A stretch of 15,049 nucleotides of DNA from a virus: the UHGV virus genome UHGV-0082254. One strand, 5' to 3'. The notes beneath the pieces were generated by a model, which saw only the letters and a program-made list of their open reading frames with translations, made no database searches and was not told the DNA's origin. This document shows positions 1,910-14,910 of the stretch, piece by piece. Both the position numbers and the translations under genes were made by a program. Position 1 is the stretch's first letter; each line of letters begins with the position of its first letter.

Positions 1910-1950
1910 GCTGTAAGCCGCGCCGTTCATGGCCTGAAACGGGATCAACA

Positions 1951-2056
1951 TTGACTATACGCGATTTTATGTTGACTGTGTGCGATTTTATGTTGACTGC
2001 ACGCGATTTATTGTTGACTATACGCGACAGAAACGTTGACTGTACGCGATTTTAGA
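1951..2056 (+). repeat. five direct iterons (incC-like) of the RepA origin
   Basis: TTGACT(A/G)T(A/G)(C/T)GCGATTT(T)A(T/G) repeated at 1951, 1972, 1993, 2014 and 2036 with 21-22 bp periodicity, immediately upstream of repA. Confidence 0.85.
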
Positions 2057-2130
2057 GCCTGAATATTCACAGCTGTTGATAACAGTCATCTAAATTAACG
2101 CCAGGCCGCGCCACACATGGAGAAACCACG

Positions 2131-3015
2131 ATGCCGGAAGAAAGTAAAGGCTTCCTTAGCGTTGAAGAAGTTGCAGGAAATACAGGAGAAATCCACAGCC
2201 TGAAGCCCAATAACAACAGCACTATACAACCTATCGCTTTGTTGCGCTTAGGTGTGTTTGTGCCAACCTTAAAATCTACCAATGTGGCACTACGTCGCGG
2301 ATCGTCAGTTACTACAAACACAACGAACGCAACCGAAGAACTATCAAGCCTTAAAATTGTTGAGCAGGAAGGCTATGAGGGAATTGAAATTCATGGCCCA
2401 CGCCTGGATATGGATACTGATTTTAAGGTGTGGGTGGGCATAACCTCCGCGTTGTTTGACTACGCACCTGATGATGACGGCATAATCACCCTGCCATTCT
2501 CCGAGTTTGCCGATCGATGCGGCTATCCACGTAAGCGCCTTTCAAAGGCGTTCCGTAAAAGTATTGATGACTCTCTGACACGCATTCAGCAGACAGTTGT
2601 CAAATTCCGCTTCCCGGCGGCAAAAGGTCATCTCAATAACATTAACGTCAACTTGTTGGCATATAGCAGCCTGAATACCGAGCTTGATGTTATCGAGATC
2701 CAGCCGCAGAAACAGCTATCTGAACTTTACTATGTTGACTATAAGCGAATCCTGAAGCTGAAGATGCTGGATAAGCTCGGGCGCAAAGAGACGGCCAAGG
2801 TACTGTATACATTCTTTGAGGCTCTACCCGCCAACCCGGCACCTGTCAGCATTGAGCGCCTTAGAGCAAGGCTTAATCTCAAATCATCCGTTAGCGTGCA
2901 AAATAGCGTTATCAGAAAAGCCATGAAAGATTTGGAAGCTATTGAATATCTTAAATTTTCAGAGATAAAAAACGGCAGGAAAATCGGCTTCCAGATCCAT
3001 AAGCGCAATCCATAA
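2131..3015 (+). CDS. repA: iteron-binding plasmid replication initiator RepA (P1 RepA family)
   Basis: 294-aa ORF with SD GGAGAAA, flanked by iteron arrays on both sides. Protein blocks (PIALLRLGVFVP, GPRLDMDTDFKVWVG) resemble P1 RepA as I recall it. Confidence 0.85.
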   Translation: MPEESKGFLSVEEVAGNTGEIHSLKPNNNSTIQPIALLRLGVFVPTLKSTNVALRRGSSVTTNTTNATEELSSLKIVEQEGYEGIEIHGPRLDMDTDFKVWVGITSALFDYAPDDDGIITLPFSEFADRCGYPRKRLSKAFRKSIDDSLTRIQQTVVKFRFPAAKGHLNNINVNLLAYSSLNTELDVIEIQPQKQLSELYYVDYKRILKLKMLDKLGRKETAKVLYTFFEALPANPAPVSIERLRARLNLKSSVSVQNSVIRKAMKDLEAIEYLKFSEIKNGRKIGFQIHKRNP

Positions 3016-3017
3016 TA

Positions 3018-3272
3018 TTGACTATATGCGATAGCGAGAAGTTGACTATAGGCGACATTCGTTGACGCTGGTGGATTTTTGCTGGCGTCAATATTCTGCA
3101 AGTCGCTATTGAGATGGCTTTTAGGGTCATTTCATCGCGTATAGTCAACGTTTCTCCCGACAATATCTTACATAGTCGATCTTTGGTGGAGTTAAATCGA
3201 CTACAGTCAACTTTTGACTGTAGTCACATCGCGCATAGTCAACTATTCACATTAACTTTCGCGCATAGTCAA
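3018..3272. repeat. downstream iteron array (incA-like copy-control locus), about nine sites in both orientations
   Basis: Direct-orientation TTGACTRT.. at 3018, 3042, 3062 (degenerate) and 3214; inverted-orientation ..RTAGTCAA ending at 3148, 3180 (partial), 3210, 3242 and 3272. Confidence 0.8.
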
Positions 3273-3307
3273 CATTTGCGCGGTTCTCATCAAGCAGTGG
3301 TATTGAT

Positions 3308-4117
3308 ATGCAAGAAGAGAAACAACACTACCTCTACGTTCTGGTGCCGGAGAACGGAGATACTTTTAAAATCGGCATTTCATGTGGTCCATTGGCACGG
3401 TTTAAAGGGCTACAAGTGAGTCCCGATTTTGCGCTTTCACGGGTCTATCGTGGTACGCGTTTGGCAATAGTTAATCTTGAGCGGGCTTTACACGCAACCT
3501 TTTTCCCCTGGAATGCGCCGTGGGAGAAAAGCGCTGGTGGCGGGCATACTGAATGGTTTACACGAGAGTGTCTTGATAAGGTTTTGGCTCATATCGAATA
3601 TCTAAATGATATGTGGGGAGGGATTCTCGAGCGCATTAAGTCGAATGATTTACTTCAGCGTCCAGTAGATGCTGCCCGCTCTTTCGAAAAAGAGCTGGAT
3701 GTTACTTCTATCGTGACTTTCAAAGATGACGCAGGAATGAGGGACGTGGCTTATGTCTCCATATCTGGCTATGAACCGGACGCGATCCGCGCTCAATGTG
3801 AATTGCTGAAAGCAATGTTTATGCTTCGGACTAAATATCCCTGGGAGACAAGGCGGGTGTGCTTCCCTATGGAAGAGTTAACCGCCACCATTGATTCCCA
3901 GCTTTACCACGATAATCCAGAGAAGTTTTTTAGCCTTTTAGCCGGTAATGGGCTTAACTGTGTGTCCGGGCTGGGGCGAAGTAGAATCCAACATGCCTCG
4001 CTCTTCGGTCCCTTCTTTTACGATCGACACGGGTACTTTGAGGCTGAACTTCCGGCGCTTACGCGTGCTATAGATACTATCGATTTCGAACGATTATTCG
4101 CTGCTCTTAGCAAATAA
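3308..4117 (+). CDS. T5orf172 / GIY-YIG-like domain protein of unknown function
   Basis: 269-aa ORF with ATG start. The N-terminal ~90 aa carry the T5orf172-type pattern: HYLYVLV ... FKIGIS ... R ... LERALHATF ... GGHTEWF. The C-terminal ~170 aa are unassigned. Sits between incA and the par promoter. Confidence 0.7.
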   Translation: MQEEKQHYLYVLVPENGDTFKIGISCGPLARFKGLQVSPDFALSRVYRGTRLAIVNLERALHATFFPWNAPWEKSAGGGHTEWFTRECLDKVLAHIEYLNDMWGGILERIKSNDLLQRPVDAARSFEKELDVTSIVTFKDDAGMRDVAYVSISGYEPDAIRAQCELLKAMFMLRTKYPWETRRVCFPMEELTATIDSQLYHDNPEKFFSLLAGNGLNCVSGLGRSRIQHASLFGPFFYDRHGYFEAELPALTRAIDTIDFERLFAALSK

Positions 4118-4124
4118 CACTGAT

Positions 4125-4146
4125 GCCCCTGAACGGGGCTTTTTTG
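4125..4146 (+). terminator. rho-independent terminator
   Basis: GCCCC-tgaac-GGGGC stem followed by TTTTTTG, 8 nt after the stop at 4115-4117. Confidence 0.7.
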
Positions 4147-4285
4147 TGCCCTCCTTGTAACTCTCAATCGTGCAAAATGAACCAAACATGCAGAGAATGC
4201 TATGTACAAGCATCTGTGCATACATTATTATTTTATGCAGCATTTTTAATTAAATTCAAAAATACAGCATAAAGGATGGCTTTCG

Positions 4286-5482
4286 ATGAGTGATTCCAGC
4301 CAGCTTCACAAGGTTGCTCAAAGAGCAAACAGAATGCTCAATGTTCTGACTGAACAAGTACAGTTGCAAAAGGATGAGCTACACGCGAACGAGTTTTACC
4401 AGGTCTATGCGAAAGCGGCACTGGCAAAATTGCCTCTACTGACTCGAGCGAACGTTGACTATGCCGTGAGTGAAATGGAAGAAAAGGGTTATGTTTTCGA
4501 TAAACGCCCTGCTGGCTCTTCAATGAAATATGCGATGTCAATTCAGAACATCATTGACATATATGAACATCGCGGAGTGCCAAAATACCGGGATCGCTAC
4601 AGCGAAGCGTATGTGATTTTCATCTCCAATCTTAAAGGCGGTGTGTCAAAAACTGTATCGACGGTTTCTCTGGCGCATGCAATGCGTGCTCACCCTCATC
4701 TTCTGATGGAAGATTTAAGGATTCTGGTTATTGACCTTGATCCGCAATCTTCAGCAACGATGTTTTTAAGCCATAAACACTCTATTGGTATCGTAAACGC
4801 AACATCTGCACAGGCTATGTTGCAGAATGTAAGCCGTGAAGAGCTGTTAGAGGAGTTTATTGTTCCTTCTGTTGTACCTGGGGTTGACGTTATGCCTGCG
4901 TCGATTGACGATGCCTTTATTGCATCCGATTGGAGAGAGCTGTGCAATGAGCATCTACCGGGTCAGAACATCCATGCTGTCCTGAAAGAAAATGTGATTG
5001 ATAAGCTGAAGAGCGATTATGACTTTATCCTCGTTGATAGTGGTCCTCACCTTGACGCCTTCCTGAAAAATGCTTTGGCCTCGGCCAATATACTGTTTAC
5101 ACCTTTGCCGCCTGCAACGGTTGATTTCCACTCATCGCTTAAATACGTTGCCCGCCTTCCTGAGTTGGTGAAACTCATTTCGGATGAAGGCTGCGAGTGC
5201 CAGCTTGCGACTAACATTGGTTTTATGTCCAAGTTGAGTAACAAGGCAGACCATAAGTATTGCCATAGCCTGGCTAAAGAAGTGTTCGGTGGGGATATGC
5301 TTGATGTCGTCCTCCCTCGCCTTGACGGTTTTGAACGCTGCGGCGAGTCTTTTGACACTGTTATTTCAGCTAACCCGGCAACGTATGTTGGTAGTGCTGA
5401 TGCATTGAAGAACGCGCGAATTGCCGCGGAAGATTTTGCTAAAGCAGTTTTCGACCGTATTGAATTTATCAGATCTAACTGA
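4286..5482 (+). CDS. parA: partition ATPase ParA (type Ia, P1/P7 type)
   Basis: 398 aa; deviant Walker A box LKGGVSKT; long N-terminal extension typical of type Ia ParA; SD AAAGGATGG. Sequence and length match P1 ParA as I recall it. Confidence 0.9.
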   Translation: MSDSSQLHKVAQRANRMLNVLTEQVQLQKDELHANEFYQVYAKAALAKLPLLTRANVDYAVSEMEEKGYVFDKRPAGSSMKYAMSIQNIIDIYEHRGVPKYRDRYSEAYVIFISNLKGGVSKTVSTVSLAHAMRAHPHLLMEDLRILVIDLDPQSSATMFLSHKHSIGIVNATSAQAMLQNVSREELLEEFIVPSVVPGVDVMPASIDDAFIASDWRELCNEHLPGQNIHAVLKENVIDKLKSDYDFILVDSGPHLDAFLKNALASANILFTPLPPATVDFHSSLKYVARLPELVKLISDEGCECQLATNIGFMSKLSNKADHKYCHSLAKEVFGGDMLDVVLPRLDGFERCGESFDTVISANPATYVGSADALKNARIAAEDFAKAVFDRIEFIRSN

Positions 5483-5498
5483 GGAGTAAGAAACCCCC

Positions 5499-6500
5499 AT
5501 GTCAAAGAAAAACAGACCAACAATTGGGCGAACCCTTAATCCTTCAATATTAAGCGGATTTGATAGTTCTTCAGCCTCTGGCGATCGAGTCGAGCAGGTA
5601 TTCAAGTTATCAACTGGTCGCCAGGCCATATTTATTGAAGAGGTAATACCTCCGAACCAGGTAGAAAGCGATACCTTTGTTGATCAGCATAACAACGGGC
5701 GTGACCAGGCATCTCTTACGCCAAAATCATTAAAAAGTATCCGAAGCACTATTAAGCATCAGCAATTTTACCCTGCAATAGGTGTTAGACGGGCTACAGG
5801 GAAAATTGAAATTTTGGATGGTTCCCGGCGTCGAGCTTCTGCCATCTTAGAGAACGTAGGGTTGCGGGTTTTAGTCACGGACCAGGAGATCAGCGTTCAG
5901 GAAGCGCAAAATTTAGCGAAAGACGTTCAGACAGCATTGCAGCACAGCATTCGAGAAATAGGTCTGCGTTTGATGCGAATGAAAAATGATGGGATGAGTC
6001 AGAAGGATATTGCAGCCAAAGAAGGGCTGTCTCAGGCGAAGGTCACGCGTGCTCTCCAGGCAGCGAGTGCTCCGGAAGAATTAGTCGCCCTTTTCCCTGT
6101 GCAGTCGGAATTAACCTTTTCGGACTACAAAACGCTTTGTGCTGTTGGCGACGAAATGGGGAACAAGAATTTAGAGTTTGATCAGCTTATTCAAAACATA
6201 TCCCCGGAAATAAACGACATCTTATCCATTGAAGAAATGGCCGAAGATGAAGTTAAAAATAAAATCCTGCGCTTGATAACAAAGGAAGCCTCACTACTCA
6301 CGGATAAAGGTTCTAAAGATAAGTCCGTAGTTACTGAATTATGGAAATTTGAGGACAAGGATCGCTTTGCAAGGAAGCGCGTGAAAGGCCGTGCATTTTC
6401 TTATGAGTTTAATCGACTCTCAAAAGAGTTACAGGAAGAACTCGACAGGATGATTGGGCATATCCTTAGAAAGAGCCTCGATAAAAAGCCGAAGCCTTAA
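5499..6500 (+). CDS. parB: centromere-binding protein ParB (P1/P7 type)
   Basis: 333 aa, SD GAGGAG, immediately downstream of parA and followed by parS; sequence matches P1 ParB as I recall it. Confidence 0.9.
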   Translation: MSKKNRPTIGRTLNPSILSGFDSSSASGDRVEQVFKLSTGRQAIFIEEVIPPNQVESDTFVDQHNNGRDQASLTPKSLKSIRSTIKHQQFYPAIGVRRATGKIEILDGSRRRASAILENVGLRVLVTDQEISVQEAQNLAKDVQTALQHSIREIGLRLMRMKNDGMSQKDIAAKEGLSQAKVTRALQAASAPEELVALFPVQSELTFSDYKTLCAVGDEMGNKNLEFDQLIQNISPEINDILSIEEMAEDEVKNKILRLITKEASLLTDKGSKDKSVVTELWKFEDKDRFARKRVKGRAFSYEFNRLSKELQEELDRMIGHILRKSLDKKPKP

Positions 6501-6590
6501 ACTTTCGCCATTCAAATTTCACCATTAAATTACTGTTTTTAAAGTAAATCCTTCTAAAATTTCAAGGTGAAATCGCCACGATTTCACCTT
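6501..6590 (+). other. parS centromere (P1-type box A / box B arrangement around an AT-rich IHF-like core)
   Basis: Box B TCGCCA at 6504 and 6573; box A ATTTCAC at 6516 and 6581 and inverted GTGAAAT at 6567; AT-rich central segment between them. Confidence 0.8.
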
Positions 6591-6643
6591 GGATTTTACC
6601 TTTTCCCCCCTCCTCCCGAAAAAAAAAAATTTCTTGTCACGAG

Positions 6644-6671
6644 AAAGTCAACAAGTGACTTTCAATAAAAT
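6644..6671 (+). promoter_or_regulatory. candidate late-type promoter: palindrome AAAGTCA-N5-TGACTTT plus -10-like TAAAAT
   Basis: Perfect 7-bp inverted repeat at 6644-6662, followed after 3 nt by ATAAAAT, about 50 bp upstream of the first structural gene. Promoter function is inferred from position only. Confidence 0.3.
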
Positions 6672-6722
6672 CTCTTCCGAAAAGGGATTCACACAAGTGC
6701 CTTGTGTTTAAGGAAGAGTAAA

Positions 6723-8429
6723 TTGAGTAACTTACGCGAATACCAGAATCGTATTGCAGATATCGCAAAACGCTCTAAAGCTGTGCTTGGCTGGGCAAGC
6801 ACTGCGCAGTTCGGTACTGATAACCAATTCATTAAAGATGATGCCGCGCGTGCCGCATCTATCCTTGAAGCTGCACGTAAAGACCCGGTTTTTGCGGGTA
6901 TCTCTGATAATGCCACCGCTCAAATCGCTACAGCGTGGGCAAGTGCACTGGCTGACTACGCCGCAGCACATAAATCTATGCCGCGTCCGGAAATTCTGGC
7001 CTCCTGCCACCAGACGCTGGAAAACTGCCTGATTGAGTCCACCCGCAATAGCATGGATGCCACTAATAAAGCGATGCTGGAATCCGTCGCAGCAGAGATG
7101 ATGAGCGTTTCTGACGGTGTTATGCGTCTGCCTTTATTCCTCGCGATGATCCTGCCTGTTCAGTTGGGGGCAGCTACCGCTGATGCGTGTACCTTCATTC
7201 CGGTTACGCGTGACCAGTCCGACATCTATGAAGTCTTTAACGTGGCAGGTTCCTCTTTTGGTTCTTATGCTGCTGGTGATGTTCTGGACATGCAATCCGT
7301 CGGTGTGTACAGCCAGTTACGTCGCCGCTATGTGCTGGTGGCAAGCTCCGATGGCACCAGCAAAACCGCAACCTTCAAGATGGAAGACTTCGAAGGCCAG
7401 AATGTACCAATCCGAAAAGGTCGCACTAACATCTACGTTAACCGTATTAAGTCTGTTGTTGATAACGGTTCCGGCAGCCTACTTCACTCGTTTACTAATG
7501 CTGCTGGTGAGCAAATCACTGTTACCTGCTCTCTGAACTACAACATTGGTCAGATTGCCCTGTCGTTCTCCAAAGCGCCGGATAAAGGCACTGAGATCGC
7601 AATTGAGACGGAAATCAATATTGAAGCCGCTCCTGAGCTGATCCCGCTGATCAACCACGAAATGAAGAAATACACCCTGTTCCCAAGCCAGTTCGTTATC
7701 GCGGCTGAGCATACGGTACAGGCGGCGTATGAAGCACAGCGTGAATTTGGTCTGGACCTGGGTTCCCTACAGTTCCGCACCCTGAAGGAATACCTGTCTC
7801 ATGAACAGGATATGCTGCGTCTTCGCATTATGATCTGGCGTACTCTTGCGACCGACTCCTTTGACATCGCTTTGCCGGTTAACCAGTCCTTTGATGTATG
7901 GGCAACCATCATTCGTGGCAAATTCCAGACTGTATATCGCGACATTATTGAGCGCGTTAAATCTTCTGGTGCGATGGGGATGTTTGCTGGTGCTGATGCA
8001 GCATCTTTCTTCAAACAGTTGCCGAAGGATTTCTTCCAGCCAGCCGAAGACTATATCCAGACTCCGTATGTTCACTACATCGGTACCCTGTTCGGTAACG
8101 TGAAAGTGTACGAAGTACCTGCTGGTATTTGTAAGAATTTAACGACAGAGAACATTCAGTTCAGCTCGATGGATGTGCTGTGCTACGTCCGTGATGAAAA
8201 TCCGGGTAAAGCAGGCTTCGTGACTGGTGATGCTGTCCCGGCTATCCCGTTCCAGCATCCGACCACTCCGGCGCTGGTCAACCGTACCACGCTGTGGGGT
8301 TCGGCTATCAACGATATGCACCCACGCAACGGCGCTGATTACTTCACTCGTGTAACGCTGACAATGGCCAAAAAAGGCGGGCTTAACTTTATAAGCGGCG
8401 ACACGATTGATGCCGGTGACTCTGAGTAA
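6723..8429 (+). CDS. virion structural protein, probably the major head protein precursor (P1 gp23-like position)
   Basis: Frame is open from 6702, but there is no ATG in the first ~90 codons. Best start is TTG at 6723, 6 nt after SD AGGAAG (TTG at 6702 has no SD). Long ORF heading the structural operon directly after parS. Confidence 0.45.
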   Translation: MSNLREYQNRIADIAKRSKAVLGWASTAQFGTDNQFIKDDAARAASILEAARKDPVFAGISDNATAQIATAWASALADYAAAHKSMPRPEILASCHQTLENCLIESTRNSMDATNKAMLESVAAEMMSVSDGVMRLPLFLAMILPVQLGAATADACTFIPVTRDQSDIYEVFNVAGSSFGSYAAGDVLDMQSVGVYSQLRRRYVLVASSDGTSKTATFKMEDFEGQNVPIRKGRTNIYVNRIKSVVDNGSGSLLHSFTNAAGEQITVTCSLNYNIGQIALSFSKAPDKGTEIAIETEINIEAAPELIPLINHEMKKYTLFPSQFVIAAEHTVQAAYEAQREFGLDLGSLQFRTLKEYLSHEQDMLRLRIMIWRTLATDSFDIALPVNQSFDVWATIIRGKFQTVYRDIIERVKSSGAMGMFAGADAASFFKQLPKDFFQPAEDYIQTPYVHYIGTLFGNVKVYEVPAGICKNLTTENIQFSSMDVLCYVRDENPGKAGFVTGDAVPAIPFQHPTTPALVNRTTLWGSAINDMHPRNGADYFTRVTLTMAKKGGLNFISGDTIDAGDSE

Positions 8430-8489
8430 TCAGGGGAAGTTCTCCGTTTAACATAGCGCCCCCGTGCGGGGCGCATAACAGGGAAAGTT

Positions 8490-9980
8490 ATGTCTCAATA
8501 TTCAATTCAACAGTCATTAGGTAATGCATCCGGCGTCGCGGTTAGCCCGATCAATGCCGATGCGACGTTATCTACAGGTGTTGCATTAAATAGCAGCTTG
8601 TGGGCTGGTATTGGCGTATTTGCGCGTGGCAAGCCGTTTACTGTTCTTGCGGTTACTGAGTCCAATTACGAAGATGTTCTCGGCGAACCGCTGAAGCCGT
8701 CTTCCGGCTCACAGTTCGAACCAATTCGCCATGTATACGAAGCTATTCAGCAAACGTCTGGTTATGTTGTCCGTGCTGTTCCGGATGATGCGAAGTTCCC
8801 GGTTATTATGTTCGATGAATCAGGCGAACCGGCTTACAGTGCGTTGCCATACGGTTCTGAAATTGAACTTGATAGCGGCGAAGCCTTTGCTATCTACGTT
8901 GATGATGGTGATCCGTGTATTTCACCTACCCGTGAGTTAACCATTGAAACGGCAACAGCGGACAGCGCAGGTAATGAACGCTTCCTCCTGAAACTGACCC
9001 AGACGACTTCGCTCGGCGTGGTAACGACCCTGGAGACACACACTGTGTCTTTGGCGGAAGAAGCGAAAGATGACATGGGCCGCTTGTGTTATCTGCCTAC
9101 GGCTCTGGAAGCCCGTTCTAAATATCTGCGCGCGGTTGTTAATGAAGAGCTGATTTCGACCGCGAAAGTAACAAATAAAAAATCACTGGCGTTCACTGGC
9201 GGTACCAACGGCGATCAGTCGAAAATCTCCACCGAAGCCTACCTGCGTGCGGTTAAGGTGCTGAACAATGCGCCGTACATGTACACCGCTGTTCTCGGCC
9301 TGGGTTGCTATGACAATGCGGCGATCACCGCGTTAGGTAATATCTGTTCTGATCGCCTGATTGATGGCTTCTTTGATGTCAAACCGACATTGACGTACAC
9401 GGAAGCGCTCTCTGCTGTTGAAGATACCGGTTTACTTGGTACCGATTATGTAAGCTGTGCTGTCTATCACTTCCCGTTCTCCTGCAAAGACAAATGGACC
9501 CAATCCCGTGTGGTCTTCGGTCTGTCTGGCGCGGCGTATGCGGCGAAAGCTCGTGGCGTCAAGAAAAACTCTGATGTCGGCGGTTGGCATTACTCACCGG
9601 CTGGTGAAGAACGTGCCGTCATTGCTCGTGCGTCAATTCAACCGCTGTATCCGGAAGATACCCCGGACGAAGAAGCAATGGTTAAGGGCCGCCTCAATAA
9701 AGTATCTGTTGGCACCTCTGGCCAGATGATCATCGACGATGCTTTAACTTGCTGCACGCAGGATAACTATCTGCACTTCCAGCACGTCCCATCCCTGATG
9801 AATGCAATCAGCCGTTTCTTTGTCCAGTTAGCCCGCCAGATGAAGCATAGCCCTGACGGTACAGAACCGTATGTGCTGAAAGTTACGCAGGCGGAATTCG
9901 ATAAATGGGAAGTAGTCTGGGCCTGCTGCCCGACTGGCGTAGCCCGTCGTATCCAGGGCGTACCGCTGCTTATTAAGTAA
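8490..9980 (+). CDS. contractile tail sheath protein
   Basis: 496 aa, SD AGGGAAAG. C-terminal blocks (GGWHYSP..., VSVGTSGQMIIDDALTC) resemble the conserved C-terminal region of Myoviridae sheath proteins; located upstream of tube-like genes. Confidence 0.55.
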   Translation: MSQYSIQQSLGNASGVAVSPINADATLSTGVALNSSLWAGIGVFARGKPFTVLAVTESNYEDVLGEPLKPSSGSQFEPIRHVYEAIQQTSGYVVRAVPDDAKFPVIMFDESGEPAYSALPYGSEIELDSGEAFAIYVDDGDPCISPTRELTIETATADSAGNERFLLKLTQTTSLGVVTTLETHTVSLAEEAKDDMGRLCYLPTALEARSKYLRAVVNEELISTAKVTNKKSLAFTGGTNGDQSKISTEAYLRAVKVLNNAPYMYTAVLGLGCYDNAAITALGNICSDRLIDGFFDVKPTLTYTEALSAVEDTGLLGTDYVSCAVYHFPFSCKDKWTQSRVVFGLSGAAYAAKARGVKKNSDVGGWHYSPAGEERAVIARASIQPLYPEDTPDEEAMVKGRLNKVSVGTSGQMIIDDALTCCTQDNYLHFQHVPSLMNAISRFFVQLARQMKHSPDGTEPYVLKVTQAEFDKWEVVWACCPTGVARRIQGVPLLIK

Positions 9981-13424: not shown

Positions 13425-14225
13425 TTAGCGCGTTGCCGCGACAGGTACCAGCACACCAGCATCAAGCAATCGCTTCATCAGCCACTGCTGACCTTTGCCG
13501 GTTATACGAGTCGTGAAAGAAATCCTGCTTCCATTGCTTGTATCGATCACGGTTTCTTTAAGGGTGAAATACCCACGGGATATGTATTCTTGTTTGGGGA
13601 CGTTCCTGCGTTCACCGGTTGCGATCAGAATTCCGTTATCACGCAACCAGGTGAAGAGATAGTTTTGGCCCAGGCCGAGCACTTTGGCATAGTTGCCGAT
13701 TAGAACCCCGCTGGCGGTAGCAACGCGTTCGGCGAATTCGACTTTAGGTGCATCCATAAGCATTTTTTGCTCCAGCCGTTGCTTTTGCTCTGCCAGGTCG
13801 GCAGCCAAACGGAGAGCTTCAGGGAGACTCTGCGGAATAGCAGGTTGTAATCTTCCAGCTCGATAGTCGATAAATGTCTGGTTTACCTTCAGCCGAAACG
13901 CGGGAGAAATCCAACCAGCGTACTCCACTGCGAGCAATTCATGGGCAAAAGTGCCGCCGCCACGGCCTTCGAACGAAACTATGCAATTCTGCATAGTTTC
14001 TTTTTCAAGCTCTTCGATGAGCTGTTTAGCTGACAGCGTTCTTAGCCATTGAGCTGGCGCTTTATGGGCACCGAGTCCGCTCGCTCTGTGTAGAGCATTA
14101 AGGTTGTAACGGCCAGCGCGGTCGGTCGTAATTTCAACACCACAAATAACGGGAAGAGTGGTTGAAGGATCGACATTTTGATGAAGGTTTGATATATTCA
14201 TATCCGCATTGAATGTTTGTTGCAT
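13425..14225 (-). CDS. kilA: KilA-N + KilAC (ANT) two-domain protein, KilA-like
   Basis: 266 aa, SD GGAGAAAAA. N-terminal KilA-N-like region; C-terminal KilAC/antirepressor region (LPEALRLAADLAEQ ... NYAKVLGLGQNYLFTWLRDNGIL ... RGYFTLKE ... TGKGQQWL). Confidence 0.65.
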   Translation of the reverse strand: MQQTFNADMNISNLHQNVDPSTTLPVICGVEITTDRAGRYNLNALHRASGLGAHKAPAQWLRTLSAKQLIEELEKETMQNCIVSFEGRGGGTFAHELLAVEYAGWISPAFRLKVNQTFIDYRAGRLQPAIPQSLPEALRLAADLAEQKQRLEQKMLMDAPKVEFAERVATASGVLIGNYAKVLGLGQNYLFTWLRDNGILIATGERRNVPKQEYISRGYFTLKETVIDTSNGSRISFTTRITGKGQQWLMKRLLDAGVLVPVAATR

Positions 14226-14294: not shown

Positions 14295-14311
14295 AAATTT
14301 ATTAGAGCAAA
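14295..14311 (-). promoter_or_regulatory. C1 repressor operator-like 17-mer
   Basis: Minus-strand TTTGCTCTAATAAATTT matches the P1 C1 operator consensus ATTGCTCTAATAAATTT at 16 of 17 positions; about 70 bp upstream of kilA. Confidence 0.6.
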
Positions 14312-14388: not shown

Positions 14389-14910
14389 TTAACCTATTGC
14401 TACTGGTTTTAACAAACCAGCATCAAGTAGCTTGCGAGTTAACCACTGCTGGCCTTTACCCGTTAATTGGGGCGTCAGCCGTATCTGGTAGCCATTTTCA
14501 TCATCCAACACCACTTCTTTCACCGTGAAATACCCGGCGTTGATGTACTGTTGGTGCGATACGTTTTTGCGCGCACCAAAAGCCATGAGAATGCCGTTCT
14601 GGCGCAACCATGAGAAAAGGGCGTTTTGCTTAAGTCCAACGACCTTTGCAAAGTTCCCGATCAGGATTCCATTGGCCACTGATACCCGGTCGGCAAAATC
14701 GACTTTAGGGGCTGCGGCCACCAGCTGTTGTTCCAACTGCATTTTCTGTTCTGCTAACTCGGCAGCCAGGCGTAGGGCTTCTGGTAATGTCTGGGGGATC
14801 GATGGGGTAGGGGAGTTTGCCTGCTGTAATTCTTCCAGTTTGTCGATCAGCGAACGGCGGACCGCTTTTGACTCGCGCGCGGCAACTCGCAGGGCTTGTT
14901 TGTAGGTCAT
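14389..14910 (-). CDS. stand-alone KilAC (ANT) domain protein, antirepressor-like
   Basis: 173 aa; in-frame stop at 15010-15012 and no alternative start in between, so complete in the window. Roughly 60% identical by eye to the C-terminal domain of the adjacent KilA (LPEALRLAAELAEQ ... NFAKVVGLKQNALFSWLRQNGIL ... AGYFTVKE ... TGKGQQWL). Confidence 0.65.
   Translation of the reverse strand: MTYKQALRVAARESKAVRRSLIDKLEELQQANSPTPSIPQTLPEALRLAAELAEQKMQLEQQLVAAAPKVDFADRVSVANGILIGNFAKVVGLKQNALFSWLRQNGILMAFGARKNVSHQQYINAGYFTVKEVVLDDENGYQIRLTPQLTGKGQQWLTRKLLDAGLLKPVAIG

Follow-up and report, generated by a model that had tools for sequence, protein, structure and literature searches.

A GIY-YIG/T5orf172 nuclease gene with a predicted winged-helix domain is exchanged with the replicon cassette of P1-like phage-plasmids

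Odn (Gp88 of phage ICP1) and its origin-directed relatives in the coliphages Inny, Muut, and Mt1B1_P17 are T5orf172 nucleases with an acquired DNA-binding domain of the Rep type, and they cut a rival replicon at its origin iterons (PMC8263062, PMC10448857). Nucleases of this type evolved repeatedly and are often pseudogenized when unneeded (PMC8263062, PMC10448857). T5orf172 homing endonucleases, in turn, mark the boundaries of exchanged blocks (PMC10448857).

The gene studied here occupies positions 3308–4117 on the plus strand of a 15,049-nucleotide stretch of DNA (UHGV virus genome UHGV-0082254), the whole of which is referred to as the window. The window belongs to a P1-like phage-plasmid of the RCS47/SJ46/JL22 type with a p0111-type replicon, and positions 2000–6600 are 98.7–99.4% identical to those phages. 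The open reading frame was confirmed in the window (ATG start, 269 aa plus stop) and is a real gene, syntenic in four lineages at 25–44% identity and with a pN/pS below 1. Neither the gene nor its GIY-YIG assignment is new to databases: RefSeq lists the product as “GIY-YIG nuclease family protein” for about 400 plasmids of PLSDB, with identities of 90% or more throughout. No functional study of the gene was found in the literature.

The p0111-type exchangeable replicon cassette (1925..4183, plus strand) contains origin iterons, repA, control iterons, the nuclease gene, and a terminator. A repeat search located five origin iterons of the TGTTGACTATACGCGA type with 21–22 bp spacing (1949..2049, plus strand) 5′ of repA (2131..3015, plus strand), which encodes a Rep_3-type initiator of the p0111 type (Pfam Rep3_C, 27.3 bits; Rep3_N, 22 bits), is annotated as repA/RepB family in databases, and shares 42% identity with P1 RepA in our identity matrix. 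The copy-control (incA-like) iteron array found by the repeat search at 3016..3277 consists of two forward copies (3016–3031 and 3040–3055) and four inverted copies (3135–3153, 3197–3215, 3229–3247, and 3259–3277), the last of which stops 30 nt 5′ of the nuclease ATG. A first-pass annotation had placed the gene between these iterons and the partition operon and given it a terminator of its own, and both points were borne out. An intrinsic terminator (GCCCC-TGAAC-GGGGC plus a T-run; 4125–4148, plus strand) lies 36 bp short of the right edge of the cassette, and the Ppar promoter/operator (4203..4231, plus strand; from a promoter scan and the P1 annotation via alignment) is the right neighbor of the cassette, outside it, with parA (4286–5482) and then parB downstream. 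Homology to P1 restarts 19 bp 5′ of the Ppar –35 element.

In both p0111-type lineages, one additional iteron copy (TGTTGACTATAAGCGA, 94% to the reference copy) was observed at a matching place inside the repA coding sequence (window positions 2733–2748; 9610–9630 of locus L003). This copy could serve as a binding site for RepA within its own gene, or its conservation may be a chance effect of coding constraint.

Between repA and the nuclease ATG, no sigma-70 promoter or C1 operator was found on the plus strand and no terminator was predicted, while the last inverted iteron lies 20–30 nt 5′ of the nuclease ATG in all four lineages. On these grounds, repA and the nuclease gene probably share one transcript, which would span the control iterons and end at the terminator at 4125–4148. 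Upstream regions aligned across the lineages were uninformative.

The N-terminal domain (residues 1–105; 3308..3622, plus strand) matches Pfam PF10544 (T5orf172) with 26.8 bits (E 7.6e-6; gathering cutoff 20 bits) over residues 8–85 and profile positions 2–87 of 101; MUG113 and Tox-URI2, from the same clan, score under their cutoffs. PHROG 681 (“endonuclease”) was matched at 1e-9, and the full-length PHROGs match is phrog_2876, a family of unknown function. An NCBIfam search with the protein returned no match, and the protein contains no CxxC motif. The motifs from which the domain had been recognized at first pass are all present (HYLYVLV, residues 7–13; FKIGIS, 20–25; LERALHATF, 57–65; GGHTEWF, 78–84). 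In an HMM alignment, the near-invariant residues Y10, K21, G23, R31, E58, H62, G79, E82, W83, and F84 are present in all four lineages, and Y10, K21, G23, R31, E58, H62, and E82 (in TEWF) are each found in 92–100% of 142 distant homologs. The catalytic set of the clan is a Tyr in strand 1, an Arg in helix 1, and a metal-binding Glu, for which Y10, R31, and E82 stand here; R31 and E82 would be the catalytic Arg and Glu as judged by motif position. E82 can likewise be matched, by motif position alone and not by superposition, to I-TevI E75 and to Odn E180, the catalytic metal-binding Glu mutated in Odn E180A (PMC8263062). In the structure model, this domain has the GIY-YIG α/β fold, with ICP1 ORF88 as a structural neighbor. 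The T5orf172/GIY-YIG assignment is thus backed by profile, fold, and catalytic residues, and nuclease activity is predicted.

An AF2 model computed from two sequences was too poor for use (pLDDT 51), but one computed from the four known lineages reached a pLDDT of 74.5, with about 80–89 across most of both domains. It consists of two domains separated by a disordered, length-variable linker (residues ~113–128; 3644..3691, plus strand), which has pLDDT <50 at residues 117–127 and is indel-rich in the lineage alignment. The C-terminal domain (residues ~129–269; 3692..4114, plus strand) is modeled as a winged helix plus extra strands, with a core made up of helix 157–173, strand 183–187, helices 188–194 and 198–211, and strands 215–220 and 227–231. 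By two methods, its best structural matches, with borderline scores, are the Rep_3 initiators (RepE, pPS10 RepA, MSBI1.176 Rep, and P1 RepA) and RctB, and the fold is closest to the WH1 dimerization/DNA-binding domains of Rep proteins, no match reaching E 1e-3. These matches were credited to the C-terminal domain through its winged-helix topology and the coverage of the N-terminal domain by the GIY-YIG matches, aligned query ranges not being given. The model makes the C-terminal part likely to be a winged-helix DNA-binding domain, the putative DNA-recognition module of the protein, and is suggestive of a “Rep-like” character. The initial statement that the C-terminal ~170 aa match nothing therefore stands at the level of sequence and gives way to a winged-helix fold at the level of modeled structure. 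Sequence homology to RepA was looked for separately and not found: hhalign assigned a probability of 0.2% when the domain was compared with five aligned P1-like RepAs, and nothing relevant was found in Pfam at E≤10 or in an HMM search of PDB sequences.

A fold most like Rep WH1 dimerization/DNA-binding domains, encoded beside the control iterons in all four lineages and probably co-transcribed with repA, could also belong to a domesticated replicon factor. Such a protein would bind the control iterons or RepA through a WH1-like surface and tune copy number, handcuffing, or repA expression, its GIY-YIG domain being inactive or confined to binding or nicking. CapR provides a precedent for the domestication of modules derived from homing endonucleases as regulators (PMC8096241); however, CapR is a DNA-binding module alone, without a T5orf172 domain, whereas here deeply diverged lineages have all retained the catalytic Tyr, Arg, and Glu, which is unexpected for a binding-only protein.

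The distribution of the family was examined by a word-indexed search of 5.8 billion proteins, done twice, by an exhaustive HMMER search of 1.84 billion representatives, and by scanning PLSDB (tblastn with the P0009 and P0011 variants), IMG/VR, and GTDB genomes. Among the approximately 5.8 billion proteins, the full-length family comprises only four diverged lineages: the p0111 type of the window, P0004 (44% identical to it), P0009 from Salmonella (28%), and P0011 (about 25–30%, with the value varying by alignment). About 160 additional matches have only the N-terminal domain in common. All four lineages reside in P1-like elements and fill the same slot there, the nuclease gene following repA and its control iterons and preceding parA. 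The cassette layout is conserved (five origin iterons with 21-bp spacing, repA, and forward and inverted control iterons), and is shared by loci L003, L004, and L006 with their own iteron types; across the four lineages there are three distinct iteron sequences. Three T5orf172 proteins of comparable length from among those next in similarity (P0013, P0017, and P0018) were inspected for context: two have informative surroundings, a chromosomal island and a conjugative element, neither of them rep/par-linked, and the third lies on a 1.9-kb contig, too short to reveal its neighbors.

Distant homologs are located in islands with Mrr/WYL genes or on conjugative elements, and GIY-YIG/T5orf172 nucleases are known in conflict systems. 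Both observations, together with the fast evolution and frequent loss described below, which are typical of defense genes, would suit a single-gene defense or abortive-infection effector that cuts unrelated invading phage or plasmid DNA and protects the lysogen. Against this, the protein gave 0 matches at E≤1 to the 5027 PADLOC models (PADLOC-DB v2), there is no partner sensor gene, the full-length family is confined to one replicon-cassette slot and absent from defense hotspots, and a defense role leaves the strict linkage to replicon type unexplained. Anti-phage defense, one of the three roles first suggested for the gene, gains no positive support from these results, and we regard it as distinctly unlikely.

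Comparison of the window with P1 by blastn gave matches at 73–1924 and 4184–9861 only. These flanks are 94–100% identical to P1, with ParA, ParB, and gp23 at 100%, but the block between them (1925–4183) has no P1 counterpart, and P1 is without the nuclease gene. The same block edges recur between L003 and L004, whose backbones are 94–99% identical in DNA (ParA 100%, gp23 99%) and whose cassettes encode RepAs of 41% and nucleases of 29% identity. By sequence comparison, this is a second, independent cassette swap, in which each partner has its own diverged nuclease gene. The right edge of the cassette is abrupt; on the left, homology fades across some 200 bp of oriR. According to the alignments, the ~2.3-kb cassette moves as a unit between near-identical backbones, and the nuclease gene, which forms its right end, travels and is inherited together with rep rather than with par. 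Replacement with identical edges in two independent backbone pairs would be expected if a gene-less allele were cleaved and its flanks co-converted, and ordinary flanking-homology recombination predicts the same pattern. We considered the sharp right boundary as an independent sign of homing and rejected it, because the nuclease genes are too diverged for internal recombination and homology must resume just after them.

L003 (Logan ERR2144811) and L004/L005 (Salmonella enterica GCA_007478465.1) are diverged P1-like elements, with gp23 about 80% identical to that of P1. The L003 replicon is p0111-like (RepA 84% to the window). L004 combines an IncY-like RepA (83% to P1) and P1-type iterons with a nuclease gene, so the nuclease is not limited to one replicon type. 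Within PLSDB, it accompanies about 401 of the 404 p0111 replicons (a count of presence and not of intactness), in agreement with the first-pass view of a cargo gene riding with the replicon.

All IncY plasmids examined in PLSDB join incA directly to par, of P1 or P7 type, and the nuclease gene is absent from them. A search for a nuclease remnant in the 170-bp incA–Ppar spacer of canonical P1 gave nothing better than E 0.4 (tblastn and short-word blastn). No clean empty site was found, and IncY elements differ across the whole cassette.

The partition side of the locus showed exchange of its own. The par module has also been exchanged independently of the rep cassette (L014, pHYEC7-mcr1; L015, E. 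coli D9 plasmid B; and L006), and IncY repA–incA is joined to a P1-type par (ParA of 398 aa) or to a P7-like par (ParA of 401 aa, overlapping parB), the rep–par junction being located exactly at the incA end. Between the window and L003, ParB (66% identity) is much more diverged than ParA (89%). Two p0111-type P1-like plasmids, L007 and L013, are typed “IncHI1B” by MOB-suite (via PLSDB), which looks like a mis-typing of their Rep_3 replicon.

The nuclease evolves much faster than its neighbors. Between the window and L003, dN is 0.52 for the nuclease (0.28 in the N-terminal domain and 0.70 in the C-terminal part), vs. 0.13 for repA, 0.07 for parA, and 0.26 for parB. The two domains are 65% and 31% identical, respectively, in this pair, and 61% and 27% between P0009 and P0011. 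Since the window and L003 have the same iteron sequence and RepAs of 84% identity despite the divergence of the C-terminal domain, this domain is not tracking the iteron of its own replicon. Across about 48 p0111 loci sampled from IMG/VR and from phages to represent the population, the nuclease has 32 synonymous and 40 nonsynonymous variants and a pN/pS of 0.36, about 20–30 times that of its neighbors (repA 0.02, parA 0.01).

About 17% of the sampled nuclease alleles (1 in 6) are disrupted by a nonsense mutation or an IS, whereas repA and parA have zero disrupted alleles in the sample. Three independent nonsense mutations were found (W68*; S112*, in five loci; and Q228*, in SJ46), and frameshifted alleles are also present. 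An IS200/IS605 element (Y1 TnpA plus TnpB) replaces nuclease codons ~99–174 in the IMG/VR contig L056 (3294–5058), and in p50EVA-2, a complete 99.6-kb plasmid, the gene is interrupted near codon 122 by an element of the IS3 family (L007, ~3250–4560). The gene is thus a recurrent target of IS insertion.

The nuclease gene is dispensable for replication and partition, and its whole or partial loss is compatible with plasmid persistence, as in SJ46 with Q228*. Fast evolution and frequent disruption together argue that it is not a maintenance gene; the indispensability and strong purifying selection seen in repA and parA, by which a core maintenance gene would be recognized, are lacking in the nuclease. 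The proposals that it belongs to the core maintenance cassette and acts in plasmid maintenance are accordingly disfavored by its absence from IncY, its disrupted alleles, and its elevated pN/pS. The same data weigh on the domesticated replicon factor introduced above: IncY replicons of the same architecture function without the gene, complete plasmids and phage SJ46 carry IS-disrupted or nonsense alleles, selection is far weaker than on repA, and the C-terminal domain differs highly between elements that share iterons. We therefore consider such a factor unlikely.

The pattern also resembles the life cycle of homing endonucleases. A nuclease is joined to a separate recognition module (a winged helix by the model), and inactivated alleles point to a degeneration cycle; presence/absence polymorphism between close relatives with an intact empty site was not seen. 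The gene could be a decaying relic, a former homing endonuclease that became fixed in cassettes and is drifting to loss with no current function, as the share of disrupted alleles, the relaxed constraint, and the absence from IncY would allow. This seems quite improbable to us: the open reading frame is intact and the active site conserved in four lineages separated by saturated synonymous divergence, the pN/pS is clearly below 1, and nearly all p0111 replicons in PLSDB still contain the gene, by the same count of presence and not of intactness.

We tentatively favor, with confidence somewhat short of even, a modular site-specific endonuclease that is a conflict passenger of non-IncY P1-like replicon cassettes and cuts rival DNA. 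Among the three roles suggested at first pass, the exclusion of competing elements fits best. The N-terminal GIY-YIG/T5orf172 domain would cut, and the fast-evolving C-terminal winged-helix domain, held by the flexible linker, would recognize DNA. Because ParA and ParB of the window and P1 are identical, such elements would be expected to compete directly in one cell, and the most likely action would be cleavage of a specific site in a competing related replicon when two elements come together in a cell. The rival could then be destroyed, as by Odn, or recombinational repair could copy the nuclease-bearing cassette into the rival backbone, as in homing.

A narrower version of this proposal is a plasmid-encoded origin-directed nuclease whose Rep-like winged helix recognizes the iteron or origin DNA of rival P1-like elements (e.g., IncY), eliminating the rival or prompting gene conversion by which the whole cassette of origin, repA, iterons, and nuclease would enter its backbone. 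We hold this version to be doubtful. If true, a complete replicon would in effect behave as a homing element, nuclease action would add a layer to plasmid incompatibility, and the cleanly swapped replicon cassettes on near-identical P1 backbones would be explained.

New here are a likely C-terminal winged-helix domain that may be Rep-like, the finding that the family occupies a single slot in the replicon cassettes of P1-like elements and is exchanged with them, and the evolutionary signature of a conflict gene. In E. coli and Salmonella, P1-like phage-plasmids of the p0111 type are frequent vehicles of ESBL and mcr resistance genes, and more than 400 PLSDB records carry the p0111 cassette. 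Should the nuclease bias how P1-like elements compete or recombine, it would be an unrecognized factor in which replicon type wins and in how cassettes move between backbones, and the origin-directed nuclease principle, so far seen only between lytic phages and satellites, would extend to plasmid-vs.-plasmid conflict. If this reading is wrong, what remains is a clearly defined, dispensable protein of the T5orf172 nuclease family whose probable DNA-binding domain is new, and for which the RefSeq name is adequate.

Two features elsewhere in the window were also observed. A near-perfect P1 C1 operator (TTTGCTCTAATAAATTT, 1 mismatch), the sole C1 operator found, lies at 14295–14311 on the minus strand, just 5′ of a minus-strand KilA-N plus ANT (antirepressor) gene (13425–14225), with a second ANT-domain open reading frame beyond it (14389–14910, minus strand); together these features resemble an antirepressor module under C1 control at the right end of the window. 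The tail sheath protein, gene 22 (8490–9980), has 496 aa in the window vs. 529 aa in P1, RCS47, L003, and L004. At ~9853–9861, the blastn HSPs overlap by 9 bp and omit about 99 bp of P1, which suggests that 33 codons near the end of the sheath gene were lost in frame between direct repeats of 9 bp.

Among described systems, Odn is alike in its T5orf172 catalytic domain, in which the catalytic Arg and Glu are present, and in being a dispensable, fast-evolving conflict gene; ICP1 gp5 is likewise frequently frameshifted. Odn joins T5orf172 to an initiator-related DNA-binding module, and the predicted winged helix here is Rep-like by fold only. In Odn, a DNA-binding domain of the RepA_N family lies at the N-terminus and shares 42% identity with the RepA of its target, whereas the domain here is C-terminal and Rep_3/WH1-like by fold only, with no detectable sequence similarity to RepA. 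The settings differ as well: Odn serves a lytic phage against a satellite, whereas this nuclease gene lies inside a plasmid replicon cassette beside its own iterons.

I-TevI and other GIY-YIG homing endonucleases have the same order of N-terminal GIY-YIG domain, flexible linker, and C-terminal DNA-binding domain, and are likewise free-standing genes at module boundaries that undergo cycles of decay. Unlike I-TevI, the protein here is of the T5orf172 subfamily, with “KIG” replacing “YIG”, and its modeled winged helix contrasts with the Zn-finger/helix-turn-helix string of the I-TevI DNA-binding domain. The T5orf172 homing endonucleases of ICP1 and other phages (with CapR, DUF723, or DUF4397 Zn-finger domains) share the nuclease domain family and the position at the boundary of an exchanged block; however, they have N-terminal Zn-finger repeats, which are absent here, and lie near essential genes of lytic phages and not in a plasmid replicon.

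GIY-YIG nucleases of the SLX1/UvrC type are structure-specific repair nucleases with other partner domains, and differ from this nuclease in being only 11–16% identical to it in sequence. Rep_3 initiators have a WH1–WH2 tandem, whereas the protein here has a single winged-helix-type module without sequence homology to them and is not an initiator. Rep_3 initiators and RctB nevertheless supply the best structural matches of its C-terminal domain, and it is just such an initiator, with its iterons, that the nuclease gene adjoins.
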